DNA of 64,000 nt from a virus. Taxonomy: Duplodnaviria; Heunggongvirae; Uroviricota; Caudoviricetes. The notes below the pieces were generated by a model. That model was not told where the DNA came from. It did not search any database and saw nothing but the letters and a program-made list of their open reading frames with translations. The stretch's first letter is position 1; every line of letters begins with the position of its first letter. Made by a program: the position numbers and the translations under genes. The stretch lies in IMG/VR virus record IMGVR_UViG_3300022924_000017, positions 22,054-86,053 of that record; one strand, written 5' to 3'. Shown one piece after another: positions 6,332 through 47,338 of this stretch.

Positions 6332-7477
6332 ATGAGCGATAAATTCACTATCGTAGTCGCAGGACTACCACACACCCACCTGACCACAGAATACTCCAGC
6401 GACGCGTACCAATCTAAGGTGCGCAATTTTGCTATTATGATGGCTCGCATAGGCTATAAAGTCATTACTTTGGGTGGTGAAGAATGCGATATTATCGAAG
6501 ATGGGCACAAACACGTCCCGATTATCACGAAAAAAGAACAAGAAAAGTTCTTCGGTGACCCGCTCGCGTACAAAAAGACGATGTACAACCTGACGTGGGA
6601 GCCTTCTGATGCTCACTGGCAGCTTTACAACAAGCGAACCATCACTTTCTTGCAAGATTATATTCAAGAACACCCAGACGAAGACGTTCTGTTCGGTGTT
6701 TTAGCTGGTTACTGCCAGAAACAAGTGACTGACGCGCTACCTAATCTGATCGCCCCTGAACTATTTATCGGGTATACGGGTGTTTATTCACCATACAAGG
6801 TGTTTGAATCAATCACTCACCAACACTATGTGTACGGTGAACACCACGATGACGACGGAAAGTTCTACGATGCGGTGATTCCACCCTACCACCCTAAAGA
6901 ACAATTCCCATTCTCTACGAAGCGTGGTGACAAAAAAGGTAATTATCTTCTCTACATCGGTCGTTTGATTGACCGCAAGGGTTACAACATCGCTCAACAG
7001 GTCGCAGAAAAGCTCGAAAAGCGTCTTATTATCGCTGGTCAGCTTAACGAAGGGCAAGAGTTTACTGGTTATGGTGAGTACATCGGTACAATCGGTGTCA
7101 AAGAACGCGGACGCTTGATGAGTCGTGCTGACGCTGTGCTTATGCCTACAACTTACCTTGAGCCAGGCGGCAACGTCCACGTTGAATCTCTCTTATCTGG
7201 TACCCCTGTTATCACTACAAACTTCGGTATCTTTGCCCAAACTGTTCTGCAAGGTGTAGACGGTTACCGTTGCAATACATTCGGTGACTTCTTAGAAGCT
7301 GTACGTAGGGCTGAAAACTTTACAACCGCGCAACGTCGTGTTATTCGTAAACGCGCTCAAGAACGATTTGCTCTGGAGCCAGTCGCTTTACAGTTCGACG
7401 CTTACCTTTCTCGGCTTCACGATCTGAAGACAGATGGTTGGTACAACCCCTCTCACCACCTCGACCACCTAGCCTAG
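6332..7477 (+). CDS. glycosyltransferase, GT-B fold (family 1/4-like)
   Basis: 381 aa; YIGRLIDRKGYNIAQQVAEKL...LIIAG and E...G motifs resembling GT4 signatures. Confidence 0.55.
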   Translation: MSDKFTIVVAGLPHTHLTTEYSSDAYQSKVRNFAIMMARIGYKVITLGGEECDIIEDGHKHVPIITKKEQEKFFGDPLAYKKTMYNLTWEPSDAHWQLYNKRTITFLQDYIQEHPDEDVLFGVLAGYCQKQVTDALPNLIAPELFIGYTGVYSPYKVFESITHQHYVYGEHHDDDGKFYDAVIPPYHPKEQFPFSTKRGDKKGNYLLYIGRLIDRKGYNIAQQVAEKLEKRLIIAGQLNEGQEFTGYGEYIGTIGVKERGRLMSRADAVLMPTTYLEPGGNVHVESLLSGTPVITTNFGIFAQTVLQGVDGYRCNTFGDFLEAVRRAENFTTAQRRVIRKRAQERFALEPVALQFDAYLSRLHDLKTDGWYNPSHHLDHLA

Positions 7478-9129: not shown

Positions 9130-10161
9130 ATGAGCGAGAAGCGACTATCAAAAGAATGGGAATCAGCGGCATTTAACCGCGAAACGAACGAATGGGATCA
9201 CACAACCCTGCAGTCGTATGAGTACATAGATGACCGTGAACCATTTTCACCAGCTGTCGCAGCCCGCATAACACCAAGTAGACGAAAAGGTGTAGACCGA
9301 CCGTTCACTTCAATCGTAGCAATGGGTGACAGCCAAATCGACTATCGAAGACTTGATAGCGGTGAGCTTTTACCTATCCACGATGAGCGAGCTATGAAAC
9401 TAGCTAGGTTTATCTGCAGAGATTTACAGCCAGACCATATCGTTAACCTTGGCGACTCAGTTGACTTCGCGGCTCTATCTCGATTCAACCCCGATTCAGA
9501 CCACTTCCACAGGACTTTAGGACCTTCGCTGCAACGAATCCACGACTTCTACGCTGGTCTTCGCTCAGATAACCCTCACGCTAAGATTACAGAGGTAGAC
9601 TCAAACCACAACGTGCGTCTGAAGAACTACACGCTGAAGAATATGCCACAGATGTACGGTGTTCGACAAGCTGGCTCTAGCGATGAATACCCAGTAATGA
9701 CATACCCTTACCTCGCGAACCTACAGCACGTGGGTGTTGATTGGGTAGGTGGTTACGGTGCAGCCGCATTCGAATACGCTGATGATTTCGCATTTATGCA
9801 CGGTACTATGTCTTCAGCTAGTGGTTCTACTGCACAAAAACTGTCTAAAGAAAATCCAGACCGAAACGTTATGCAAGGTCACGCTCACAGAGCTGAATCA
9901 TTCCACCGCACAGACCGACGAGGTAAAGTGCTTGGTGCATACGTTGCAGGTGCCCTCTGCCGCACCACTGGAGAGGTTCCAGGCTTTCACAGTGCAGTAG
10001 ATGACAACAATCTACCAGTACACTACCAAGAGAACTGGCAGCAAGGAATGACACACGTTCGCGACTACGGTGACGGGCAATATCAAGTAGACCATATTCT
10101 ATTCAGAGACGGAAAAGCGTATTATGATGGTAAGGAGTATGACGGGAATGATACGGTTTAA
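9130..10161 (+). CDS. calcineurin-like metallophosphoesterase
   Basis: GDSQID, NLGDSVD (GDxxD) and GHAH motifs. Confidence 0.55.
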   Translation: MSEKRLSKEWESAAFNRETNEWDHTTLQSYEYIDDREPFSPAVAARITPSRRKGVDRPFTSIVAMGDSQIDYRRLDSGELLPIHDERAMKLARFICRDLQPDHIVNLGDSVDFAALSRFNPDSDHFHRTLGPSLQRIHDFYAGLRSDNPHAKITEVDSNHNVRLKNYTLKNMPQMYGVRQAGSSDEYPVMTYPYLANLQHVGVDWVGGYGAAAFEYADDFAFMHGTMSSASGSTAQKLSKENPDRNVMQGHAHRAESFHRTDRRGKVLGAYVAGALCRTTGEVPGFHSAVDDNNLPVHYQENWQQGMTHVRDYGDGQYQVDHILFRDGKAYYDGKEYDGNDTV

Positions 10162-11256: not shown

Positions 11257-11835
11257 TTACTTTAGGCTGTAGATGAAGTCGTAACCACTCGCTGAGATTG
11301 TGCGAATGTTCACCTTACCGATACCGCCAGCGTAGTTCATTTCGCTAATAGTCATCTCTGTTTTATCACGAGACATACTTTCAACGATAAACACGTGACC
11401 AGCCCAACCAGCGTAACTTACGCCAATTGCCCCGATCTTAGGTTCTTTACCGATTTCATAGCCTTCTGCTCGTGCTGAAGATGTCCAACGGTTAGCGTTA
11501 CCCCAGAAACTACCTATATCAGGTCGTTGAGAGCGCGCGTACCACGTACATTGACCCCAAGCGTAACTGTTACCACCTTTGTTCGGTGAGTCGCGTCCAG
11601 GCTCAACAAAGAAGCTCTTGAGGTTAGCTACAGCATCATCTGCTGCCTTAATTTGTGCTTCGAGGGTAGTTCGCTGTGTCGCGATCTTTTCTCGTTCTGC
11701 TTTTTCTTCTGCGATTTGTTTGGTCATTTCGACCATCATTGTTTGTTGAACTCGCTGTTGTTCTAGTTGCGGGTTAGGTAACGCAGGTATACCTTGTAGC
11801 GACATCAATGAAGCAACAGCAAACTCGACTATCAT
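11257..11835 (-). CDS. CHAP-domain peptidoglycan hydrolase
   Basis: GQCTWYA...GHVFIV Cys/His CHAP signature; N-terminal coiled-coil. Confidence 0.7.
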   Translation of the reverse strand: MIVEFAVASLMSLQGIPALPNPQLEQQRVQQTMMVEMTKQIAEEKAEREKIATQRTTLEAQIKAADDAVANLKSFFVEPGRDSPNKGGNSYAWGQCTWYARSQRPDIGSFWGNANRWTSSARAEGYEIGKEPKIGAIGVSYAGWAGHVFIVESMSRDKTEMTISEMNYAGGIGKVNIRTISASGYDFIYSLK

Positions 11836-12749: not shown

Positions 12750-12752
12750 AAA

Positions 12753-12785
12753 AACCCACCTGCGAGAGTGGGTTTTCTTTTTTGT
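12753..12785 (+). terminator. rho-independent terminator
   Basis: AAAAACCCACCTGCGAGAGTGGGTTTTCTTTTTTG. Confidence 0.8.
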
Positions 12786-12796
12786 TTCGATGTTTA

Positions 12797-13183
12797 TTAG
12801 AAAGGGATCGCAGATAGGTCGATAGGTTTATCCTCGATGTCGTCGATAACTACATCTTGACTTCCACTATCTTGCTTCTTTGGGTCGATGAACACGATTT
12901 CACGAGCGTTAATCTCGATCTTACTGTGCTTTTGACCATCTTTGTCCCATGTTCGTTGCTGTAACTGACCTTGCAGTAGGATTCGTGAACCCTTGCTGAA
13001 GTGGTTAGCAACTAATTCGGCAGTCTTTTCCCACGCGGTAACGTCGATAAAGCTAGTGTCGCCCTCTTTGTAGCCATTTACTGCTACAGAGAAACTTACT
13101 ACGTTCTTGCCTGTTGTTGTTGATTTTAGTTCTGGGTCTTTGGTAAGACGTCCAGTGATGGTGACGGTATTTAAGTCTGCCAT
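12797..13183 (-). CDS. ssb: single-stranded DNA-binding protein
   Basis: OB-fold SSB sequence MADLNTVTITGRLTKDPELK... with acidic C-terminal tail ending DLSAIPF; start moved to the internal ATG with RBS (track ORF extends to 13303). Confidence 0.8.
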   Translation of the reverse strand: MADLNTVTITGRLTKDPELKSTTTGKNVVSFSVAVNGYKEGDTSFIDVTAWEKTAELVANHFSKGSRILLQGQLQQRTWDKDGQKHSKIEINAREIVFIDPKKQDSGSQDVVIDDIEDKPIDLSAIPF

Positions 13184-13415
13184 TTTATTCCTTCGGCTTT
13201 CGCCCTTTACATAGTTATTACTCTTCTTATTATACACGGATTTGGGGTTCTGGCTACCCAATTGTGCAGACCAAAGTACCTCTGTTAAAGACCCAGGATC
13301 CACTTAATTGCCGCTACCGCTAACGCGATTACAACAGCTACAATACACGCAATAACAATTGCTGCGGCTGTACCTACGATTAGTGCTCCGCCTTTGTCTT
13401 CTGGTTCGTTCTTGT

Positions 13416-13697
13416 TCATACTACCTCTTTTATTTTTACGTCTATATCAGTTGCATACATCACAGTGTCACTTATCTTGGCTCCTAGGCCCTTCGTGAGC
13501 TTCCTGCTTGCACCCAAACCTATCTTCTCTTTCTCTAGGTACTGCACGAAACGTGCACCCATAACGTGAGAAAACACTACGGTCACAGCGATAATATCGT
13601 CGTGTGTATAGTGTAACGGAAGTTTACCTGCAGCGTCATCACGCATGATTTCTTCTGCAAGTCGGTGTAGTGGTTCAAGTTTCTCCGTCTGCATCAT
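13416..13697 (-). CDS. hypothetical protein
   Basis: 93-aa ORF. Confidence 0.35.
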   Translation of the reverse strand: MMQTEKLEPLHRLAEEIMRDDAAGKLPLHYTHDDIIAVTVVFSHVMGARFVQYLEKEKIGLGASRKLTKGLGAKISDTVMYATDIDVKIKEVV

Positions 13698-13877
13698 CTT
13701 TGTCCTTACCAGCCTTGAACCCTAAAGTCGGCTTCTCTTTTTCAATATCGAGCTTCAGATTGTCGATAAAGAGACTCAGAATAACCCGAGACTCCTTATC
13801 TTCAATCAGAGCGTTCGCGAGCTTTGCCTTCGCTAGTAGTTCCTTTTTATTCATATCCCTATACTACCTATCAATCC

Positions 13878-14810
13878 CTAAAACTTCAAGTCGTGGTCTG
13901 CAGCCTGAAATACCATCAAACCAAGGTCACGTCGCCACATATCAACCACCTGTGGGCGGTCGTCAAACACTGCAAGTACATTGTATTTGTCTTTGATGTG
14001 TTGCTCGTACAGCTCTTTCTTTGTGATAGAGTCCTGTCGGTCGTCATTGTCTGCACGCATAATGAGTTCATCATACGGTATTGACCATTGGTCTAACCAT
14101 GCTTCGGTTGCCGCTCGAGCACCCTCTTTACGACCACTCAATAGAATGATGTGTGTGTACTTCGTGTGCTTACGTGAAAAGTCATCACGAAACAGGTCGA
14201 TAGCGTCGAAGATGTGTGTTAATGCGTAGTTCGGTGTGTCATTCTTAACTTGCTCAAGATCGTACCAGCTACGACCAGTGAGGTTGTGAGCCAGCGTACC
14301 ATCAATGTCGCACAAGAACGCACGTGGTAGTTTGTCTTTCCAGTCAGAACGTCGTTGGTGAAAGCCTGGGTGAACGTACTTGTAATACATATCTAAGATA
14401 ACGTCTTTGCCGATGCTCTTCTCGCGGTCTTCATCACGCTTGATACATTCATCAACTGGTACATCTAAGAAGCTGTCATCAACTTCAAAGTCAACGTCAG
14501 TCTCGGTAGCCAGCATTCGAAGTTGCCCACGGTGCTTAGGGTCGAGGTTTGTGTCTGAAACGACTACACTGTTGCCAGCTCGTAGTGCGTCACGAATAAG
14601 ACGGTTGCGCTCTCGAATAACGATAGCTTCATCACCGCGTTTGTGGTTGTATTCACCGCCTTCGAACAGCTTGCTGTCTTTGCGAATAATGTCTTTTTCA
14701 ACCTGCACCCACGTTTCTTCGGGGGTACTATTGTCTGTCAGCTCGGTAGCTGCTGTGCTCTTACCTGAGCCAGGTAGACCGACCATCATGCGTAGAATAG
14801 GTTTTTTCAT
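13878..14810 (-). CDS. pnk: bifunctional polynucleotide 5'-kinase / 3'-phosphatase (T4 Pnk-like)
   Basis: N-terminal P-loop GLPGSGKST; C-terminal HAD phosphatase motif LCDIDGTLA. Confidence 0.8.
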   Translation of the reverse strand: MKKPILRMMVGLPGSGKSTAATELTDNSTPEETWVQVEKDIIRKDSKLFEGGEYNHKRGDEAIVIRERNRLIRDALRAGNSVVVSDTNLDPKHRGQLRMLATETDVDFEVDDSFLDVPVDECIKRDEDREKSIGKDVILDMYYKYVHPGFHQRRSDWKDKLPRAFLCDIDGTLAHNLTGRSWYDLEQVKNDTPNYALTHIFDAIDLFRDDFSRKHTKYTHIILLSGRKEGARAATEAWLDQWSIPYDELIMRADNDDRQDSITKKELYEQHIKDKYNVLAVFDDRPQVVDMWRRDLGLMVFQAADHDLKF

Positions 14811-14828
14811 CTTTGTCCTTTTATGTTT

Positions 14829-15740
14829 TTATGCGTCAGTACTACTATAAGCAACGCTCACGTCGTTGTCTAGTATGTCGTGAAAGACTGTTCTGATTCT
14901 GTTTGATAGTAATTTCGCGAGTTTTTTGTTATCAATCGCAGGGGCTGACCTGAATATTTCCCACGCTTCTTCAGTGATGATGTCGTGTTGCGTCATACCG
15001 ATAATACGAGGGGTGTCTGAGATTACAGCTTTGCGGCTTTCTAGTGATTCGAATTTCTTGATGATTTTCTCAACTCGAGCAAGTGTTACATAGTTAGATG
15101 TAATTCTAAGCTCGTGATATACGGGGTCACTCTTGCTGTAGTTACCAAAGAGTTCGTTATTCACTTCCTTAAACTTGTCGTTGACGTACTTCGCATAGGT
15201 AATGTCACCGAATTGGTTTCGGTATGTGTCGCTTTTGATGACGACACCTTCGTTCATAACGCCACGGTCGGTTCGTGAAGCAAACTCTTTGATCTCATCG
15301 AAGGTGAACTTACCCGTACCATAGTGGTTAGGGGTTTCTAGGTCTAGCTCTTGAGCCAGGTTTCGTACTTCTTCTTGCGTCCAGTTGGTGTCGGTTGCGC
15401 TGTTGTACACGTCAAACAGATAAACCTTACCGTAGTATCGCGGGTCGTATTTAATAGTGTGTCGCACAAGCAACTCACCATAAAAGATAATGTCTGGGTT
15501 CGCTGTTAAGAACTCGACTACCTTTGGGTTGTTTCTAATAATCTCTTGACCGCCCCTAAAGTTCTCACCGATAGGTAGCATTCTGCTTTTTGTACCACAC
15601 CTAACTTCACCTTCGTGGAAAAAGGCAGTGAAGTTAGCACCGTCTAGCTTTTCAGAGACGCTAACGACACCGTCAAGGATGCCCTTTGTCTCTTCTACGC
15701 TCATTCGGTAGATTTTTGGATACGATCTGTATATAGCCAT
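14829..15740 (-). CDS. RNA ligase (nucleotidyltransferase superfamily)
   Basis: KLDGAN (KxDG) adenylation motif; adjacent to Pnk as in T4 tRNA repair. Confidence 0.65.
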   Translation of the reverse strand: MAIYRSYPKIYRMSVEETKGILDGVVSVSEKLDGANFTAFFHEGEVRCGTKSRMLPIGENFRGGQEIIRNNPKVVEFLTANPDIIFYGELLVRHTIKYDPRYYGKVYLFDVYNSATDTNWTQEEVRNLAQELDLETPNHYGTGKFTFDEIKEFASRTDRGVMNEGVVIKSDTYRNQFGDITYAKYVNDKFKEVNNELFGNYSKSDPVYHELRITSNYVTLARVEKIIKKFESLESRKAVISDTPRIIGMTQHDIITEEAWEIFRSAPAIDNKKLAKLLSNRIRTVFHDILDNDVSVAYSSTDA

Positions 15741-15764
15741 ACTTATAGTATGGACATCAATGCC

Positions 15765-15971
15765 CTATAAGTCAACTTCTTCGAAAAACTCGTTGAACTC
15801 ATTGTGCGTGATAGACAAGAAGAACGGTCGCTCTGTGCTTGTAAGCTCAACCTTTGAACGACCAATATCGAAAGGACTGTGATAAATAGCGTCTAATTCG
15901 AACACTTCGCCCTCTTTAACTACTCGTGCATTATGTGACTTGCTCTTGAACTTTGTTTTTGCTTTGTACAT
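15765..15971 (-). CDS. hypothetical protein
   Basis: 68-aa ORF. Confidence 0.3.
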   Translation of the reverse strand: MYKAKTKFKSKSHNARVVKEGEVFELDAIYHSPFDIGRSKVELTSTERPFFLSITHNEFNEFFEEVDL

Positions 15972-16031
15972 CTTATAGCCCCTTTACAGGACTAATTATA
16001 AGTCAGAAGCCGCAACTAAATCAATAGCTAT

Positions 16032-16652
16032 TTATGCGAGTTTCGTAACGGTAAAAGTCTTACCGTCAACTATTTCAAGAACACTACAGTCACCGAAGTG
16101 GGTAAGGTCTTGGTATTGCGAGAATGTGTCAACGCACCATACGTTTTGCTGTACTTCCCAACAAGTCTTGCTAGGGGTGTGACCGAACACTTGGTTTGGT
16201 TTGTAGACGTAGCCTTGCCCAGGTCGTACCCACATGTGCCCATCATCTGCGAGTGGGTGACGGTTAGGTGTCCAGTCGTCAGTCAGACCAGCGTGTGAAT
16301 AAGTGACCCCGTCAATTTCGTAGGTTTCTGGTAGCTTTCGCATAAAGTCGGTGAGTTGAGGTTCAGCGTCAAACATCATTTGAGCTTGAGGGTCCCAACC
16401 TGAATACATACCGCTATACTTCTTGTTGAAGTAACAGAGGTCGTGGTTACCACAGAGCGCGATGATATTAGGGTGAGTTTGCACCAATCGCTGTACTCGT
16501 AGAATCATATCGAGTCGGTCGAACCCGCTAGAGCCCCAGTTGTCGAGGTAGTCACCTAAAAGAACTACTTTGTCGTAGTTTTCAGCAACTTTTTCAACCT
16601 GATCTAGAATCCATTGTTTTTGGTGTGTGTCACCTACTGCAAGAACTTTCAC
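16032..16652 (-). CDS. Ser/Thr protein phosphatase family metallophosphoesterase
   Basis: GDTHQ, GDYLDNWG, GNHD motifs (lambda-PPase/T5-like). Confidence 0.75.
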   Translation of the reverse strand: MKVLAVGDTHQKQWILDQVEKVAENYDKVVLLGDYLDNWGSSGFDRLDMILRVQRLVQTHPNIIALCGNHDLCYFNKKYSGMYSGWDPQAQMMFDAEPQLTDFMRKLPETYEIDGVTYSHAGLTDDWTPNRHPLADDGHMWVRPGQGYVYKPNQVFGHTPSKTCWEVQQNVWCVDTFSQYQDLTHFGDCSVLEIVDGKTFTVTKLA

Positions 16653-16796
16653 TCTTCAACCTCTATATCGTTAATAACATTCTTAGCGTTTTCATAATCT
16701 TCAAGACTAAGTGTACTAACACCTAGTATACGCTGCAAGCGTGCTTTGTCGTCAGGGGTAAGACCTACTTCGTAAACGTATTCGCGTTCAGTCATA

Positions 16797-17372
16797 TTAG
16801 TCCCAGAACTGTCGAGCGTGGTGAGCCCAGAAAGTCATAGCGTTCACCGCTTTGCTGTGTAGCTTTTCTACCTTAGCGTGGTGTTCGTGCATCAGCTTTT
16901 TAACGCGAGCGTCAGTCAGCTTTTTACCAGTCTTCTCTTCACGCCATTCAACGGTGATATGTGAGGTGTCTTCTTCCCCCTCTGTGATATAAGCGTCTTC
17001 AAGGTTCACGATTTGACCCGCAAGACCAGTAGCCCAGTCACCGCGATCAACTTTTAGGTAGTTATCAATATCGGTGTAGACCTGCTTGAGGTTCTTGTAA
17101 CCAAAGTTGCTGCCTTCGTCTACCCACATCTTAAACATATATTCGAAGTCGCTAACACCCTTGCTCTCGTGCCACTTCAAGCTCTCTGAGATGAGTGTCA
17201 TCAAGTGGGTGCCGCTACTCCACATATCTTTGTCGCTATAACCGCGAGTTATGCGTTGACGACGAAACTTATGTATACGTGACCACGTCTTAGGTCGTAG
17301 TACTGTTTGCACCTTGTAGCGCAGTGACATACCTTCAATTTCTTCAGCGAGTTCTTTGAGAGTCTGTTTCAT
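16797..17372 (-). CDS. hypothetical protein
   Basis: 191-aa ORF. Confidence 0.4.
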   Translation of the reverse strand: MKQTLKELAEEIEGMSLRYKVQTVLRPKTWSRIHKFRRQRITRGYSDKDMWSSGTHLMTLISESLKWHESKGVSDFEYMFKMWVDEGSNFGYKNLKQVYTDIDNYLKVDRGDWATGLAGQIVNLEDAYITEGEEDTSHITVEWREEKTGKKLTDARVKKLMHEHHAKVEKLHSKAVNAMTFWAHHARQFWD

Positions 17373-17376
17373 AGGT

Positions 17377-17616
17377 CTATTTTACCTTTTTTCGACCCTT
17401 TTTACCAATAAAGTTATGGTGGGTGCGAATTGAGTGCTGTCGGTTCGAGTCAAAATTGCCGCTCTCGCAGGTTGCACACTTGTAGGTATTCTTGTTGCGT
17501 ATGTCCCATTTAGTGAATGCAAGACAGTCGCTACATTGTCTAATGACGTAGAAGCGGTTCGCGATGTCTTCGTCGCTGAACAGCCCGTCCATGTGTAGAG
17601 TCTCAAGTCTAGACAC
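17377..17616 (-). CDS. small zinc-finger-like protein
   Basis: C..C ... C..C spacing. Confidence 0.35.
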   Translation of the reverse strand: MSRLETLHMDGLFSDEDIANRFYVIRQCSDCLAFTKWDIRNKNTYKCATCESGNFDSNRQHSIRTHHNFIGKKGRKKVK

Positions 17617-17936
17617 TAATACAGACCCGTTTCTTTACCAGCGAGAAACGCTGCCATGATCTTGTTGTTCTGCTCGCGCTGACGGTTCAACGCTTTCTCG
17701 GTCGCACCAGAGTTTCGCTTGTGCTGTACAAACCAAGTGAGCGCGCCCTCGATAATCACGAACATATCGTCTTCAGGGGTGTTTCGCTTCCGCAATTCGC
17801 TGATTGATATATCAAGCGGTAGCCCTTTGTCGGTATAAAGTTTACCAACCCACGTACCCTGTTCTTCTAGATATGCTCGGTTGGGGTTCGATAACGATTC
17901 AACTATCTTCTCAAGTATTAGTTCTTGCTGCGCCAT
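17616..17936 (-). CDS. hypothetical protein
   Basis: 106-aa ORF. Confidence 0.35.
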   Translation of the reverse strand: MAQQELILEKIVESLSNPNRAYLEEQGTWVGKLYTDKGLPLDISISELRKRNTPEDDMFVIIEGALTWFVQHKRNSGATEKALNRQREQNNKIMAAFLAGKETGLY

Positions 17937-18471
17937 AAACTTCGATCCTATTCTTCATATTAGCCCAGATGTGCGGGTTAGCGTCTATCTCTTTAATTAT
18001 AAGCTGTTCAGACGGTTCGAGCGTATTATCAGGACAGAAGAAAACGAGTAAAGCCTTGGTCTTACCCATAATCATCATATTCCACTGCACTTGGGATAAA
18101 ATCTTCGCGTCAGTCGTAACCGCGTTCAATAAGTGTCGTGCTTTCATAAAACATTTGATCTCGACCATATATACGTCTGTGTACCCGTCTGGAGAGCAGC
18201 CTGCCCAAGGGAAGTCGCTATTGGTAACGAAACCCGTCTCGAGCGTTTGAATGTCGTACACGCGGTCCAGGAGCTTCCTTGCTACAGGCTCTAAGTCGTG
18301 ACCACGTTCCGTGTATTTGTTACCAGTGAAGTTGCTCTCTTTAAGAACATACGTTGCTGGGTTACGGGCTAGTAGAAACTCATACGAAGTTGACCCTGTG
18401 AGCGGGTGGTCTTCGCGAATAGCAAACCATTCAGGCGTGTTCTGTTCAATTTTATCGTGGTAGGTAATCAT
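17911..18471 (-). CDS. YqaJ-like (lambda-exonuclease-type) recombination exonuclease
   Basis: QNTPEWFAIREDHPLTGS motif characteristic of YqaJ/PD-(D/E)XK exonucleases. Confidence 0.65.
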   Translation of the reverse strand: MITYHDKIEQNTPEWFAIREDHPLTGSTSYEFLLARNPATYVLKESNFTGNKYTERGHDLEPVARKLLDRVYDIQTLETGFVTNSDFPWAGCSPDGYTDVYMVEIKCFMKARHLLNAVTTDAKILSQVQWNMMIMGKTKALLVFFCPDNTLEPSEQLIIKEIDANPHIWANMKNRIEVYGAARTNT

Positions 18472-18752
18472 TTAATAAGTTCTTTCGTTAGGGTTTCTCT
18501 AAGCTCTTTCAACACCTTTTGCGTGTCAGGTCGAGTAAGAATCGTTAGTAACTGGTCAACGGTTTCTATTTGCTTGTTTATCGCGTATCCTTCGATAAGA
18601 CCCACTGTGATTGGGAATGCGTCATCTTCAAGGTTGAACGGGTCAATGCCTTCGTACTCGTAGCTTTGCTTATCCCATCGGTTAGCCATGTTCAAGTCAG
18701 CTTGAACGCTTTGAAAAATTCGTAGGTGACCTAATACTCGGTTTTTACTCAT
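18468..18752 (-). CDS. hypothetical protein
   Basis: 94-aa ORF. Confidence 0.3.
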   Translation of the reverse strand: MSKNRVLGHLRIFQSVQADLNMANRWDKQSYEYEGIDPFNLEDDAFPITVGLIEGYAINKQIETVDQLLTILTRPDTQKVLKELRETLTKELIK

Positions 18753-19047
18753 ACATGTGCCTTATATAATCGTGCTCGTATTCTAGTATGTCGAGTCGTT
18801 CTTTTCTTATTTTCATACCCCGCTTTGAGGTAATCAAGAACCCAGCAAGCATAGCTAACTGGGCGATGAGTGCGATAAACTTCACGGGTGCAAGTGGTAT
18901 CAATAGCGATGGGAACATAAAGACGAAAGAACCATAGAGAAAACGCTTCTCCCATTTGTCGTTCTTTTTAACAAGCGCGTCATAAAACTTACCTGAATCG
19001 TGCAAGCGGTCTATGATTTGTTTTTGCTCTTGTTCAACGTCAAACAC
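18745..19047 (-). CDS. membrane protein
   Basis: 100 aa with two TM helices. Confidence 0.35.
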   Translation of the reverse strand: MFDVEQEQKQIIDRLHDSGKFYDALVKKNDKWEKRFLYGSFVFMFPSLLIPLAPVKFIALIAQLAMLAGFLITSKRGMKIRKERLDILEYEHDYIRHMYE

Positions 19048-19048
19048 T

Positions 19049-19453
19049 TTATCCTCTTAGGTAGTCGATAGCGTACTCGAGTGTCTCCCAGTTGACCCCT
19101 ATAGTAGCATCGTGATGGTTCTTTACATATTGTAAGACTGCTCTAGCGAGTTCGTAATCGTCTTCGCTATACTCGTCTTTCTCTTTGTAATCATACATCA
19201 CGTTAAACACGTCGTCAACAGACCATACTATGTCGATGCTGTCAACTTCCTTGTCGCGTAGATAATCGTTACAAGCGTCGCGAATTGCTTCAATTTCTTC
19301 GGGTAAAACTGCCCAAGCAACGCTACCAGTTTCGCGTGGTAGCAGTTGCTCTTCGATTAGGTTCTCAGCTCGTGAACTGCCGATCTTGTCGACCAGCAGC
19401 CATAGCCCCCCACCGTTCTTATCTTCTTTGATTTGTCCAGTGAGGTTCCCCAT
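19049..19453 (-). CDS. acidic hypothetical protein
   Basis: 134-aa ORF. Confidence 0.35.
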   Translation of the reverse strand: MGNLTGQIKEDKNGGGLWLLVDKIGSSRAENLIEEQLLPRETGSVAWAVLPEEIEAIRDACNDYLRDKEVDSIDIVWSVDDVFNVMYDYKEKDEYSEDDYELARAVLQYVKNHHDATIGVNWETLEYAIDYLRG

Positions 19454-19455
19454 AA

Positions 19456-28611: not shown

Positions 28612-29778
28612 TTACTTCTTGAAAGTGAACTTTGAGAGCAAGTCGACGATCAACTTGATGACCTTAGATAGCCAGCTAGTTGCGCTTTCACCATCTTCAG
28701 GAATAGGAATCACTGGTGGTGTAGTTGGTGGTTCTACGAATGAACCGACTGCGATTAGCTCGTCAACAGCAGGAGTTGTCACTGCGTCAGACTTAACTGT
28801 TCGTGCGGTTTCGGTGCCGTTTGTGTAAGTTACTGTCCAGACGATTGTTCGAACACCCTTAACACCAGCGCGGATAACCTTTTCTTTGCCAACTGGCAGT
28901 GTAGCGTCTGTAGACTTAGTGATTTGGAATGCGACTTCTTCAGTCTTGCTTTCTTCTTTCACTTCTACGGTAGGTAGAGCTTCTAGCGTGTTTTCATCGA
29001 ACCCGTTACCAACGTTGTTAGTAGATGAGTAAGGTGTGCGTAGATAAGTCTTGCCGTTCCAGTTTGACTTTTGGTTGAGGTCGAACTCAGTACCAGCTGG
29101 GTAGGCTTTGATACCGTTACCAGTTTTTACTTCAACGAGTGTTGTACCACCAGCTTTAGCTCGCATACGACGTGGTGCGTCCATTGCTTGCCAGCTTGGG
29201 TCAGCAGGTGCAGGTGGTTGAGGTGGGTTGTTAATGTAGTTAACGATTGCGTCACGTTGTTCCATGATGCGTGCAGGACAAGCAGTACCGAGTTGCGATA
29301 CTTCGTGGTGACCTACGACTGCGGTTGCACCACCGAGAGCTTGGTCTTGTGGTCGCCAAAAAGCAGCGATAACTTTGTTGTCACCATCACGGAGAGTGTA
29401 GTTTCGGTAGTCACCTAGGTTTTCAATACCGATAGAGCGAGTGTTGATGTCCCAGTTACCAGCGTGCCAAGTGATTTGACCGAATGGGTCGCTAATGAGA
29501 GGAACGAGACGGTAACCAGCAGCCCGTTCAGCGTCTGTTGCGTCAGGAGTGCTACCATCTACTCGTTGCCCTGCAAAGTGGGCTTGTGAGTAAGAGCGTG
29601 CGCCAGTGTACGGGTTTATAAGACCAGACCAGTTACCAGCGTTTGACCCGTAAGCGCGAGCGTACCCGTTGTCGCTAAACCATTGTGCGAGCCATGCTTT
29701 AGATTTTTCAGTCCAGAGAGGAGTCACCGCGTGGTGAAGAACGAGGTAATCAACCCTTTTTCGGTTAACATCAGCCAT
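28612..29778 (-). CDS. N-acetylmuramoyl-L-alanine amidase (PGRP/Amidase_2) endolysin with C-terminal extension
   Basis: LHHAVT ... HAGNWDINTRSIGIE zinc-amidase motifs (T7-lysozyme-like). Confidence 0.8.
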   Translation of the reverse strand: MADVNRKRVDYLVLHHAVTPLWTEKSKAWLAQWFSDNGYARAYGSNAGNWSGLINPYTGARSYSQAHFAGQRVDGSTPDATDAERAAGYRLVPLISDPFGQITWHAGNWDINTRSIGIENLGDYRNYTLRDGDNKVIAAFWRPQDQALGGATAVVGHHEVSQLGTACPARIMEQRDAIVNYINNPPQPPAPADPSWQAMDAPRRMRAKAGGTTLVEVKTGNGIKAYPAGTEFDLNQKSNWNGKTYLRTPYSSTNNVGNGFDENTLEALPTVEVKEESKTEEVAFQITKSTDATLPVGKEKVIRAGVKGVRTIVWTVTYTNGTETARTVKSDAVTTPAVDELIAVGSFVEPPTTPPVIPIPEDGESATSWLSKVIKLIVDLLSKFTFKK

Positions 29779-34537: not shown

Positions 34538-34954
34538 ATGAGTGAGATATACAGCGACAAAATAAAAACCCCGATTTATACGCCAACTGGCGATAAGCCA
34601 CATATCGACGAACTGGTCGACGACAAAAAGGTACGCGACCTCAACGAGCGTATTCGTTCATCAAATATACCGTCTGACATTCAAGTGTTCCTGCGCAAAG
34701 CTGCGACCCGACACTATGTTTATGACTATCGAAAAATCGCTGAGTATTACGCTCACGCACCTAAAGAAGTACAAGAACTATTCGAAGCGTCTCACCTCGT
34801 GATTATTGACTTTGACAAAGCAATCGAAGAGGGCTACGTTCAAATGAATAAACGCCTTATGAGCGTACGATCAAAACAAACAAATTACGACAAAGAAATA
34901 CATGGAAAACAAAAACTTCGTAGCACTGATATTGACGCACGGGCGACCGAATAA
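34538..34954 (+). CDS. hypothetical protein
   Basis: start moved to the internal ATG (MSEIYSDK); 138 aa. Confidence 0.4.
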   Translation: MSEIYSDKIKTPIYTPTGDKPHIDELVDDKKVRDLNERIRSSNIPSDIQVFLRKAATRHYVYDYRKIAEYYAHAPKEVQELFEASHLVIIDFDKAIEEGYVQMNKRLMSVRSKQTNYDKEIHGKQKLRSTDIDARATE

Positions 34955-35816
34955 CCAAGTTACCGTAAACACGCTGAAGCGTCACGGTTATACAGGTGAA
35001 TGGAAGCTCGTAGTAGACGATGAAGACGCAACATTACCCGAGTACCGCAGAGTATGGGGTGATGATAAGGTGGTCACGTTTAGCAAGAATGAAATCGCAG
35101 AGCGGTTCGATGAAGTCGACAACTCAGGTGAACGTCGCACTATATTTTATGCTCGCAACGCTTCGTTCGATATTGCTGAAAAGCTAGGGTATAAGTATTT
35201 TATCCAGCTTGACGATGACTACGACAGTTTCAGGTGGCGAATGAACGAGGATATAAATTATTCTTCGCTTATGCTATCCCCGCTACCCGAAGAACAGACG
35301 CTCGACAAGGTGTTTGACATTATGCTCGAGTACTTCATATCGGTTCCCCTGATGTACTCACTCTGCATGGCGCAGTCTGGTGATTACATCGGTGGTGGCG
35401 GTTCGAAGATGGTCACTGACCAGTTCAGACGCAAGGTGATGAACAGCTTTATTTGCTCGACAGATAGACGATTCAAGTTTGTCGGTCGTATCAACGAAGA
35501 CGTGAACACCTATACGTCACTTGCGCACCAAGGGTTCTTGTTCTTGACGACAGCATTCATTGCACTCAACCAGAAGACTACCCAAACAAACACTGGCGGT
35601 ATGTCTGAGATGTATAAATCGCTCGGTACATACACCAAGACCGCATACACAATTATCACTCACCCTTCTGGTGCAAAGTTCTCGGTTCTCTACAATACTT
35701 CAGCCATCAAGGGTGCAGGTAAAGAGAAAGACAACAACGCGTTTCGCATTCACCACCGTATTAACTGGCGCAATACCGCACCGCTTATCCTTCGAGAAGA
35801 GCATAAGAAAGTATAA
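34902..35816 (+). CDS. putative GT-A-type glycosyltransferase
   Basis: FVALILTHGRPN N-terminal strand and QLDDDYD (DxD-like) motif. Confidence 0.35.
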   Translation: MENKNFVALILTHGRPNNQVTVNTLKRHGYTGEWKLVVDDEDATLPEYRRVWGDDKVVTFSKNEIAERFDEVDNSGERRTIFYARNASFDIAEKLGYKYFIQLDDDYDSFRWRMNEDINYSSLMLSPLPEEQTLDKVFDIMLEYFISVPLMYSLCMAQSGDYIGGGGSKMVTDQFRRKVMNSFICSTDRRFKFVGRINEDVNTYTSLAHQGFLFLTTAFIALNQKTTQTNTGGMSEMYKSLGTYTKTAYTIITHPSGAKFSVLYNTSAIKGAGKEKDNNAFRIHHRINWRNTAPLILREEHKKV

Positions 35817-44759: not shown

Positions 44760-45419
44760 ATGGACGCGGTATATCTTTACAAGCATACGAACAGCGATGA
44801 ACTATTCTATTCGATTCGCTTGCTTCAGAAGTTCTACCCCGACCTTGGCACTATCTACGTTATCGGTGATTTGCCACCAACACGGCTGCACGGTGAAGTA
44901 GTCCATATTCTACACCGTTCAATCGTGGGTAAGTTCGCTGACCAAATGCTCAAGTTCGCACTCGCGGTTCGCATTCCAGAACTGACCGACCAATTTATTC
45001 TTATGATGGACGATGTTTATCTCACCGCACCTTTTGAGCCATACCGAATGTACGACCGTAAGTACCCAATGCTAAACGAGAAAATAAAATCTCGCGCTGA
45101 TGACCCGTACCGCAAATCACTTATCAAGACGGACGTGTACCTGAAGCAAAATGACCTCGGTACCCGTAACTACGAACTCCACGTACCTGCTCTGATTGAA
45201 AAAGAGAAGGCGTTGTATATGACAAACAACCTCATCGACACGGATTTCGACCTGCAAATTAAAAGCCTGTACTTCAACTTCTACCCTTCGCTTGACGGGC
45301 TGGGTTCAGTGCCGTATGATGATGTTAAAAACATTAAAATCGAAGACGTTAATGCCTACTTATCGACAAGCAATGTTAAGTTCGAAAAATATAGGAAGTT
45401 TTTGGATCAATTACTATGA
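44760..45419 (+). CDS. putative glycosyl- or hexose-phosphate transferase (Stealth-like), uncertain
   Basis: ILMMDDVYL acidic motif; operonic with the GT2 and MTase genes. Confidence 0.3.
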   Translation: MDAVYLYKHTNSDELFYSIRLLQKFYPDLGTIYVIGDLPPTRLHGEVVHILHRSIVGKFADQMLKFALAVRIPELTDQFILMMDDVYLTAPFEPYRMYDRKYPMLNEKIKSRADDPYRKSLIKTDVYLKQNDLGTRNYELHVPALIEKEKALYMTNNLIDTDFDLQIKSLYFNFYPSLDGLGSVPYDDVKNIKIEDVNAYLSTSNVKFEKYRKFLDQLL

Positions 45420-46810
45420 ATGAACCTGTAGTCGGGGTTGCAATATCAACCTACAAAAGACCAGATGTTTTCAAGAAAACATACAAAGAAATTAAAAAGT
45501 ATCTGCCAAAAGGTGCCGTGCTTGTCGTTGTATCAGACCACGATGAAAATGCACCCAAAGAAGCTGATTACGTCTTCCCTGAACGTGGTGGTGTTGCAAG
45601 AGTCAAGAACAAATGCCTCGAACTGCTCGAAGAACGCGGTGCGACTGACTTTTTCCTGTTCGATGATGACACATACCCAAAGGTAAAAGACTGGTGGAAA
45701 CCTTACGTCGACAGCGAAGAGCCCCACCTTATGTACCAGTTTCGGGAGTTCGCAAATAACCCAGCAAAACAGCTTACCGATATGCTTGAAATATACCGCG
45801 ACAGCACAATCGTTGCTTACTCACACACTCGCGGTTGCATGATTTATGCTAACAAGTTAGTGCTTGAAAAAGTGGGCGGCTTAGACCCTCGATTCGGTAT
45901 CTCGATGTTCGAACACACCGCATGGACTAACCGCATCTTCAACGCTGGCCTTACTACGTTCAGAGCAATGGACGTGCCTGACAGTTCGAAGCTGATCTAC
46001 AGCATGGACGAATACCAAGAGGTTTCAAGCTCAATCGAACAACACGCACGTCGAACTGGTCTTGCGAACAACGCGAAATTGTATCGCGAATCACTAAAAT
46101 CCAGCGAGTACATTGATTACCGAGAGGTCAAGAAGTCTGATAGCGCAGGAATGAACAACGTAATTATCGCTTCTTACTTTACATCGCACGAAGACCCTCA
46201 ACGCAAGGTAAACTGGTCAGCAGATTACAGTGCTATGAAGCCGCTCATTGATTCATTGCAGGGCGAAAAGCTAGTGCTTCTGCACGATTGCTTCGATGAA
46301 CCCGACACCGAGCAGGTCACACACATAAAAGTCGAGAGCGTATTAAACCCGTACTTTCAGCGGTGGCTCAGTATTTATCGCTACCTGAAACAGCACCCCG
46401 AAATTGATAATGTTTTCTGCGTCGATTCAACTGATGTCGAGGTGGTTAACAACCCGTTCAGAGACATGGAACCTGGCAAGATTTACTCTGGTATCGAGCA
46501 GGGTGTGCCTTCACAAAGCAGATGGTTGAGACAGCACTCAACCGTTGAACCATATCGCACTTTCACCGCGCGAAACCGTCAGCACATACTCAATTGCGGT
46601 GTCGTTGGTGGCTCTCGTGAAGACATTATCGACATCTGCAGGGGTATTTACACCCGATACTTCGATAGCGGTAAGAAAATAACAGTCGAAATGCCGATTT
46701 ATGGCTTTCTGCTACGAACCTTCTACGCTGGTAGGGTTGTCACTGCGGGTGTTACAAATCAATTCAAGTCGTTCAAGTCAGATGGCACCGAACGATTCAA
46801 ACATAAATAG
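45416..46810 (+). CDS. two-domain glycosyltransferase (N-terminal GT2-like)
   Basis: VGVAISTYKRPD and FLFDDDT (DxD) motifs; second domain VIIASYFTSHED ... CVDSTDVE. Confidence 0.6.
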   Translation: MNEPVVGVAISTYKRPDVFKKTYKEIKKYLPKGAVLVVVSDHDENAPKEADYVFPERGGVARVKNKCLELLEERGATDFFLFDDDTYPKVKDWWKPYVDSEEPHLMYQFREFANNPAKQLTDMLEIYRDSTIVAYSHTRGCMIYANKLVLEKVGGLDPRFGISMFEHTAWTNRIFNAGLTTFRAMDVPDSSKLIYSMDEYQEVSSSIEQHARRTGLANNAKLYRESLKSSEYIDYREVKKSDSAGMNNVIIASYFTSHEDPQRKVNWSADYSAMKPLIDSLQGEKLVLLHDCFDEPDTEQVTHIKVESVLNPYFQRWLSIYRYLKQHPEIDNVFCVDSTDVEVVNNPFRDMEPGKIYSGIEQGVPSQSRWLRQHSTVEPYRTFTARNRQHILNCGVVGGSREDIIDICRGIYTRYFDSGKKITVEMPIYGFLLRTFYAGRVVTAGVTNQFKSFKSDGTERFKHK

Positions 46811-46822
46811 AAAAGAGAGAAA

Positions 46823-47338
46823 ATGGCTGGAGTTTCAGATTTCGAAAACAAACATATTATTAGGCAGTGGTTGCTAGACCACGAAGATGACTTTAAAACC
46901 GTGCTCGACATTGGTGCGGGCGTGGGTACATATTCACTAATGGGTCGTATGCCATCTCAACACTGGACCGCGCTCGAGGTTTTTGAGCCGTATGTTGAAA
47001 TGTTCAACCTTGAAAATAAATACAATGAAGTAATTGTTGAAGACGCTCGAACTCACGAGTATAAAGACTACGATCTTATCATTGCGGCAGATATGATTGA
47101 GCACATGGAAAAAGAAGAAGCAAAAACCCTCATTAAAAAACTGATTGAGCATTCAAAAACTTTGTTGCTTTGCTTCCCTGTAGTTCATCACGACCAGCAC
47201 GCAGGAGCCGAAGGTAATGATTTTGAGACACACGTTGACCATTGGGACGTAGAAGAGATGGACGATTTCTTGGCTGATAACGATTTCACTTCTATTGTTG
47301 GTGAAGTCTGTGCTTACTACCACGTTAGCAAACCCTAA
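46823..47338 (+). CDS. class I SAM-dependent methyltransferase
   Basis: motif I VLDIGAGVGTYS; acidic residue after beta2 (DLIIAADMIEH). Confidence 0.65.
   Translation: MAGVSDFENKHIIRQWLLDHEDDFKTVLDIGAGVGTYSLMGRMPSQHWTALEVFEPYVEMFNLENKYNEVIVEDARTHEYKDYDLIIAADMIEHMEKEEAKTLIKKLIEHSKTLLLCFPVVHHDQHAGAEGNDFETHVDHWDVEEMDDFLADNDFTSIVGEVCAYYHVSKP

Follow-up and report, generated by a model that had tools for sequence, protein, structure and literature searches.

A polynucleotide kinase/phosphatase gene and a divergent Rnl2-like RNA ligase gene as a probable RNA repair cassette of an uncultured tailed phage

The DNA analysed (64-kb stretch, positions 22,054 to 86,053 of IMG/VR record IMGVR_UViG_3300022924_000017; hereafter the window) belongs to an uncultured tailed phage and represents only part of its genome. 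On the minus strand of the window are encoded a T4-type polynucleotide 5'-kinase/3'-phosphatase (Pnkp; 13878–14810, 310 amino acids (aa)) and, upstream of it, a divergent Rnl2-like ATP-dependent RNA ligase (14829–15740, 303 aa), and together they probably constitute a heal-and-seal cassette of the phage for RNA repair. Healing and sealing of RNA is the classic phage answer to anticodon nucleases, and interest in defences directed at tRNA (PARIS, retrons, Schlafen-like nucleases) is growing. The open reading frames (ORFs) are co-oriented and separated by a spacer of 18 nucleotides (nt) from the ligase stop to the Pnkp start (14811–14828, minus strand); a Shine-Dalgarno ribosome-binding site, AAAGGA, was read from the sequence 8 nt ahead of the Pnkp ATG. 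A KxDG ligase adjoining the kinase/phosphatase in the same orientation had been noted in a preliminary description of this DNA, and the ORF list agrees with it.

The kinase/phosphatase was compared with Pfam, PHROG and the sequences of the Protein Data Bank (PDB). Matches were obtained to AAA_33 (1.9e-18) and HAD_PNKP (7e-41; 140 bits vs a cut-off of 27.6 bits), to phrog_505, "polynucleotide kinase" (1.9e-81), and, end to end, to Pnkp1 4xrp (6.9e-33, best match) and T4 Pnkp 1ltq (2.5e-27). The N-terminal part is a P-loop kinase domain (GLPGSGKST, residues 11–19), the C-terminal part a HAD phosphatase domain with a DxDxT motif (DIDGTLA, residues 168–174); the bifunctional enzyme with P-loop and HAD motif described earlier is confirmed by these matches together with both motifs. 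Pairwise alignment with T4 Pnkp paired the kinase residues K15, S16, D35, R38 and R126 of the T4 enzyme with K17, S18, D40, R43 and R129, and its phosphatase residues D165, D167, R176, R213, D254, K258 and D277/D278 with D168, D170, R180, R227, D260, K264 and D283/D284, respectively. The list of essential kinase residues of T4 Pnkp reportedly comes from Wang and Shuman (2002). Asp165 is given as the nucleophile of the T4 phosphatase in PMC3592404. A kinase devoid of 3'-phosphatase residues had been named as a finding that would speak against the assignment; it is refuted because the T4 phosphatase residues are all conserved. The product of 13878–14810 is accordingly described here, from alignment, as a predicted complete T4-type Pnkp with intact catalytic residues.

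The ligase (EKLDG at residues 30–34) matched Pfam RNA_ligase, PF09414 (1.5e-22), and the PHROG "RNA ligase" profile (3.2e-38); no match to PF09511, the Rnl1 family, was found in Pfam. Of the profile matches anticipated for the two proteins, AAA_33 with HAD_PNKP and PF09414 were obtained, PF09511 was not. BLASTP aligned the ligase with T4 Rnl2 over its full length (E 1.9e-6, 21% identity); the alignment with T4 Rnl1 (E 0.038 over 37 residues) was not significant. The ligase had been taken for an Rnl1-type enzyme; with no PF09511 match and no significant BLAST alignment to T4 Rnl1 this was given up in favour of an Rnl2-like one. A profile was made from a 31-sequence alignment of the ligase family (A1), from which the invariant residues were also read. 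Compared by hhalign with T4 Rnl2, it gave a probability of 96.9% and E 1.9e-10 over Rnl2 residues 23–307 of 334, a match that takes in the nucleotidyltransferase domain as well as the helical C-terminal domain by which Rnl2 is set apart; in the window ligase these are residues ~1–200 and ~205–295 (all-helical). Invariant in A1 are K31, D33 and G34 (motif I), E89 (III), Y107 and D110 (IIIa), E164 (IV), K184 (V), R222 and D253; motifs I, III, IIIa, IV and V of the loci examined align with those of T4 Rnl2. R222 and D253 fall exactly on R266 and D292 of T4 Rnl2, a pair joined by a structural salt bridge in the C domain of that enzyme (PMC4599027).

An AlphaFold model of the ligase (pLDDT 90) consists of a mixed alpha/beta N-terminal domain and of helices spanning 188–290; its C-terminal part is all-helical and contains no OB-fold. 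The best Foldseek match in the PDB was full-length T4 Rnl2 2hvr (E 3.8e-13, 342 columns), followed by archaeal Rnl3 (~1e-9), Naegleria Rnl5 (~1e-8) and T4 Rnl1 (5e-8). DNA ligases gave 5e-6 or weaker and were aligned over the nucleotidyltransferase core only (~210 columns). Grouping with DNA ligases had been listed as a result that would overturn an RNA ligase, and these far weaker matches, confined to the nucleotidyltransferase domain, speak for an RNA rather than a DNA ligase. The enzyme is best classified, on profile and predicted fold, as a divergent Rnl2-like RNA ligase, neither Rnl1 nor typical Rnl2. Some homologues (P0076, P0105 and P0219) reach ~540–560 aa because of inteins (Intein_splicing 1e-12 to 4e-6), which contain HNH or LAGLIDADG endonuclease domains; in P0076 and P0105 the ligase match is interrupted by the intein near profile position 90–93, beside motif III, and in P0219 the intein lies after ~173.

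Relatives of the pair: Megablast of window positions 13000–17000 against GenBank phages returned no match, and the phage is close to no deposited genome; a metagenome profile search with the ligase returned ~725 clusters (50% identity) that reach E 1e-30 or better. A relative, L004 (82.7-kb contig), encodes a ligase of 78% identity within the same gene order and with the same tRNA array. MW202692 is the only GenBank phage with a close ligase homologue (39% identity) and has genes for RlaP, ligase and Pnkp in a row; the GenBank label of this homologue, "ATP-dependent DNA ligase", looks like a misannotation. A set of 164 ligase loci was taken from viral contigs and genome contigs, and neighbours were scored within 6 kb; 50 loci with a ligase of at least 150 bits vs the query were defined as the close clade, the other 114 as more distant. 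Pnkp was found on the same strand within this distance in 46 of the 50 close loci, full-length in 42 and partial in 4, the partial matches being three stand-alone kinase-domain genes and one gene cut off by the contig end; the loci with no Pnkp match (4/50) include contigs that end at or just past the ligase. A full Pnkp was found within 6 kb of none of the 114 more distant ligases. The three stand-alone neighbours (L013, L016, L028) match only the kinase half of Pnkp (residues ~4–146) and look like stand-alone polynucleotide kinases; the phosphatase may come separately.

A non-redundant neighbour-joining tree of the ligases, rooted on T4 Rnl2, placed all 37 Pnkp-linked ligases in one clade of 44 tips, with no linked tip among the 99 outside it. 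The intergenic distance was 100 nt or less in 20 of the 37 pairs, a 4-nt overlap being common, and the order was ligase then Pnkp in 35; pairwise identities of ligase and Pnkp were correlated (r = 0.54, a value reached by none of 2000 permutations). Clustering of all ORFs around 48 clade loci gave Pnkp as the sole recurrent neighbour (45/48); a conserved third partner was sought in the same loci and, besides Pnkp, only antisense shadow ORFs recurred. Because of these results taken together (linkage, tree, spacing, order, correlation of identities and the sole recurrent neighbour), there is strong evidence, of a comparative kind, that ligase and Pnkp are a conserved two-gene functional module, and this type of ligase appears to be genetically coupled to Pnkp throughout the clade.

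RlaP and a calcineurin-like phosphoesterase were each found in 5–6 clade loci. The RlaP nucleotidyltransferase (PF10127, 2.2e-17) is encoded directly upstream of the ligase in MW202692.1 (L001, 7315–8001), and the trio occurs in 5–6 loci of the clade; the family has been linked to RNA repair (PMC12776372). A search of the window for RlaP gave nothing significant. The neighbours of distant ligases (phage K ORF21, Jenst) were a nucleoside deoxyribosyltransferase-like protein, PhoH and uncharacterised proteins, with no clear RNA-repair partner among them. The K-x-V form of motif V was considered as a marker of the Pnkp-linked clade and rejected because it is common to distant ligases. In the related viral contigs L044 (3094–3392) and L046 (539–837) tmRNA genes, with tags ending in ILA and VLA, are found a few kb from the cassette.

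Pnkp and an RNA ligase are predicted to supply the two activities needed for the healing and sealing of breaks in RNA that leave a 2',3'-cyclic-phosphate end and a 5'-OH end. In Pnkp, the HAD domain (D168 as nucleophile, and D170) would take off the 2',3'-cyclic or 3'-phosphate, and the P-loop kinase (K17, S18, D40, R43, R129) would phosphorylate the 5'-OH; we infer these healing steps because the residues essential in T4 Pnkp are fully conserved. The ligase, adenylylated on K31, would hand AMP to the new 5'-phosphate and join it to the 3'-OH; its Rnl2-like helical C domain, steadied by the R222–D253 salt bridge, would recognise the broken RNA. The pair most likely mends RNA cut in the host; tRNA is the most likely target, a host nuclease is the presumed source of the breaks, and the pair may also cooperate with the tRNA array of the window. 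RNA repair is supported by the RlaP genes in 5–6 clade loci and by tRNA genes near the cassette in some of them; the action of T4 Pnkp and Rnl1 against PrrC is an established precedent (PMC3400036; PMC3884662).

Several observations weigh against RNA repair of this kind. Motif I of the ligase is KLDG, with the Asp invariant in A1, and not KxHG (KIHG in T4), the signature of Rnl2 and DraRnl (PMC1807946). The second lysine of motif V is missing: K184 aligns with K225 and V186 with K227 of T4 Rnl2, and the latter position is Val or Leu in nearly all ligase relatives; ligases with a single essential lysine in motif V do exist (PMC1807946). The score against the NCBIfam Rnl2 equivalog TIGR02307 (32.9 bits) did not reach the cut-off (197.15) and almost equals that against the Rnl3-like model TIGR01209 (29.6 bits). 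A tRNA gene within 6 kb is absent from most related loci; the cassette of the window lies in a recombination/replication block (RecT, YqaJ, SSB), where a DNA-related role would fit too. T4 Rnl2, the closest enzyme to have been characterised, is of unknown biological role and prefers nicks in duplex RNA over breaks in anticodon loops (PMC3884662).

This last preference, with a fold and C-terminal domain that are Rnl2-like in the window enzyme, is the ground for a second reading, RNA repair not specific to anticodon loops, e.g., of nicks made in paired rRNA, tRNA stems or phage transcripts by collateral HEPN- or Schlafen-type RNases. Phages often have several RNA ligases, which are thought to answer different RNases (PMC7824862). 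We regard such general repair as unlikely: tRNA genes directly abut ligase or Pnkp in several relatives, and, with motifs I and V deviating, the substrate specificity of Rnl2 is not safely carried over to this enzyme.

The array of tRNA genes (21208–24760, plus strand) comprises 22 genes detected by ARAGORN and three more by Rfam. It was previously placed next to the cassette; it is indeed nearby, but 5.5 kb separate its start from the ligase, and it runs on the opposite strand, divergent from the cassette block. The first gene is tRNA-Lys(UUU) (21208–21282, plus strand; anticodon loop CUUUUAA), and tRNA-Lys(CUU) follows at 22551–22627 (plus strand; CUCUUAA); an array led by tRNA-Lys(TTT) and also containing tRNA-Lys(CTT), as previously reported, was thus found by ARAGORN. 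Both anticodon loops are canonical, and neither tRNA-Lys of the window bears a sequence sign of nuclease resistance. The ARAGORN genes span 18 amino acids and encode the 3' CCA in 22 cases out of 22; the Rfam additions appear to include Ile(UAU)-like and Tyr-like ones. The array is near-complete and, because it is close to a full amino acid set, lysine is not singled out. The L004 array is syntenic and also starts with Lys(ttt), the body of its tRNA-Lys(UUU) being quite different in sequence from that of the window. Among cassette-bearing relatives tRNA genes occur within 6 kb in ~13 of 41; they abut the ligase in L014 and L026 and sit between ligase and Pnkp in L023.

The Rfam-only genes, missed by ARAGORN, are located at 21374–21444, 21815–21885 and 23804–23874; in two of the three the T-loop is unusual, GGCAGAA and GGCAGTA in place of GTTCRA, and the apparent anticodons are UAU and GUA. 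A Thr(GGU)-like sequence with a seemingly 6- or 8-nt anticodon loop, called by neither tool, lies at ~21893–21970, where L004 has tRNA-Thr. The tRNA-Met(CAU) gene (21536–21620, 85 nt; an 85-nt tRNA-Met gene is present in L004 too) and the tRNA-Trp(CCA) gene (23303–23385, 83 nt) are unusually long for genes of these specificities, and a long variable arm or an insertion is therefore suggested.

The gene pair and the lysine tRNAs at the head of the array had suggested a T4-like Pnkp/Rnl1 system dedicated to PrrC-type cleavage of tRNA-Lys and deliberately layered with replacement tRNA-Lys(UUU) and tRNA-Lys(CUU). Such a system would have in its favour the leading position of tRNA-Lys(ttt) in the window array as well as in that of L004, the T4 precedent (PMC3400036), and the neutralisation of PARIS, a tRNA-Lys-cleaving defence, by a phage tRNA-Lys (PMC11464382). 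It is nevertheless considered quite improbable, given a ligase that is not Rnl1, 22–25 tRNAs for nearly all amino acids, canonical loops with no sign of nuclease evasion in both lysine tRNAs, an array 5.5 kb off on the other strand, the absence of nearby tRNA genes from most cassette-bearing relatives, and the fact that neither a host nor a PrrC was identified. Nothing points specifically to a lysine tRNA or to PrrC. A layered model of repair plus replacement is plausible, though neither new nor specifically supported here: joint action of phage Pnkp, RNA ligase and tRNAs vs host defences has been published for Cluster E mycobacteriophages (PMC5511906) and jumbo phages (PMC7824862), and replacement of cleaved tRNAs by phage tRNAs was shown experimentally (PMC11464382, PMC11555353, PMC10264068).

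The cassette is held in a tightly packed leftward block of ~18 genes (12797–20602, minus strand; ORF list, Pfam, PHROG) in the order Gp157-like protein, RecT, YqaJ exonuclease, phosphoesterase, 68-aa ORF, ligase, Pnkp, three small ORFs and SSB; this order is kept in L004. A bidirectional terminator-like hairpin (12751–12776) closes the block, and a promoter/terminator scan gave nothing else informative. The position of the cassette between RecT/YqaJ and SSB, and that of the MW202692 cassette behind DNA polymerase and primase-like genes, would suit a role at DNA ends or RNA–DNA junctions in replication and recombination rather than in counter-defence: Pnkp would clean 3'-phosphate/5'-OH ends of DNA, and nicks whose 3'-OH side carries a ribonucleotide would be sealed by the ligase. 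The "DNA ligase" label of the GenBank homologue would agree with this, as would the fact that no other ligase was seen in the 64-kb window; the window is not the whole genome, however, and a DNA ligase may lie elsewhere. A ligase with no OB-fold domain and with a conserved Rnl2-type C domain, DNA ligases matching its core only (E 5e-6 or weaker vs 4e-13 for Rnl2), the clade-level association with RlaP and the tRNA genes of some loci make a DNA role distinctly unlikely.

Upstream of the ligase are two further genes of the block, both on the minus strand. The ORF at 15765–15971 (68 aa, between phosphoesterase and ligase) gave no match in Pfam and PHROG searches and has a counterpart of 46% identity at the same position in L004. 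The ORF at 16032–16652, 290 nt upstream of the ligase, encodes a calcineurin-like metallophosphoesterase of 206 aa (Pfam Metallophos, 7.5e-09; no match in a PDB sequence search). Phage RNA-repair genes have been reported together with calcineurin-like phosphoesterases (PMC7824862), and the protein is a possible accessory end-healing enzyme whose membership in the cassette is uncertain; a metallophosphoesterase is encoded upstream of the ligase only in the five closest clade members, where the co-occurrence could be plain synteny. A second, larger metallophosphoesterase-like protein (9130–10161, plus strand; phrog_20266 1.2e-51, no Pfam match) is encoded outside the block.

Host and other genes of the window: Terminase relatives are only ~30% identical and occur in phages of Bacteroidota. 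The endolysin (28612–29778, minus strand) combines Amidase_2 with a G5 domain, and the protein at 11257–11835 (minus strand) matches a CHAP-domain protein of L004; tblastn of the endolysin against GenBank phages gave no match, and no GenBank phage relative of the CHAP protein was detectable. Both proteins hint, by domain content, at a Gram-positive host. In a scan of genome contigs close ligase relatives were met in three metagenome-assembled genomes only, with mixed and probably unreliable taxonomy. A TET-associated glycosyltransferase (34902–35816, plus strand; PF20691, 6.9e-33) is encoded just upstream of the terminase genes, and ORFs at 6332–7477, 44760–45419, 45416–46810 and 46823–47338 add two more glycosyltransferases, a Stealth-like protein and a methyltransferase; these genes suggest a capacity for DNA hypermodification or glycosylation.

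The locus adds little conceptually; it corrects the assignment of the ligase from Rnl1 to Rnl2-like and sets apart a large clade of Rnl2-like ligases, monophyletic and mostly from viral and metagenome contigs, whose genes nearly always share an operon with Pnkp. What Rnl2-type phage ligases do in vivo has never been established, and the clade offers a clean way into this question by experiment: both genes of the cassette are small and often coupled in translation, and they can be co-expressed and tested vs defined ribotoxins. It is conceivable, and we put it forward tentatively, that the Pnkp-linked clade is a distinct subfamily of RNA ligases (Rnl2 scaffold, KxDG motif I, single-lysine motif V), perhaps recruited to serve Pnkp as a dedicated partner that seals tRNA broken by nucleases. 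Were this the case, the clade would be a functional analogue of Rnl1 on the Rnl2 fold, and Rnl2-type phage ligases would gain a clear biological role, which is still missing for T4 Rnl2.

Comparison with known systems: T4 Pnkp (pseT) and Rnl1 (rnlA), the PrrC antidote, share with the window the two-domain architecture of Pnkp, with all catalytic residues conserved, and a separate, co-oriented ATP-dependent RNA ligase gene upstream. The preliminary description had equated the two arrangements; the window pair is not literally that of T4, because four genes separate the co-oriented rnlA and pseT, as against 18 nt between ligase and Pnkp here; the ligase, homologous to T4 Rnl1 in the nucleotidyltransferase core only, is not Rnl1. 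T4 Rnl2 (rnlB) is the best profile and fold match of the window ligase over both domains, with motifs I, III, IIIa, IV and V recognisable; the differences are an identity of ~21%, KLDG in place of KIHG, K-x-V in place of K-x-K in motif V, and the gene context, rnlB not being beside pseT whereas the window ligase clade is almost always beside Pnkp.

In mycobacteriophages Omega/Cjw1 and Cluster E the genes for a T4-like Pnkp and an RNA ligase lie close together, with a few tRNAs, and these genes and the phage tRNAs have been interpreted as a means of countering host defences (PMC5511906, which cites Zhu et al. 2004). Cluster E Pnkp is ~36% identical to that of the window; tblastn with the window ligase gave no mycobacteriophage match, and the ligases are therefore assigned to different clades; actinophage ligases were described as lying outside Rnl1 and Rnl2 (PMC7824862). 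The Pnkp1-Rnl-Hen1 system of Capnocytophaga gingivalis (4xrp/4xru) provides, in Pnkp1, the best solved-structure match of the window Pnkp, and Pnkp and ligase are separate polypeptides in both; the Hen1 methyltransferase of that system was not found in the window, and neither the sequence matches nor the fold matches of the window ligase include the 4xru ligase chain. RNA ligase operons associated with RlaP (Burroughs and Aravind 2016; Iyer et al. 2021) correspond to the RlaP-ligase-Pnkp row of MW202692 and of 5–6 clade members; the window has no RlaP homologue and instead the calcineurin-like phosphoesterase gene upstream of the ligase. Comparative-genomic surveys have already reported phage ligases of the Rnl1 and Rnl2 types alongside PNK-HAD, RlaP and calcineurin-like phosphoesterases (PMC7824862). 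The window system would thus be one of a well-known kind, predicted to work like T4 Pnkp/Rnl1 but with a ligase of Rnl2 architecture.

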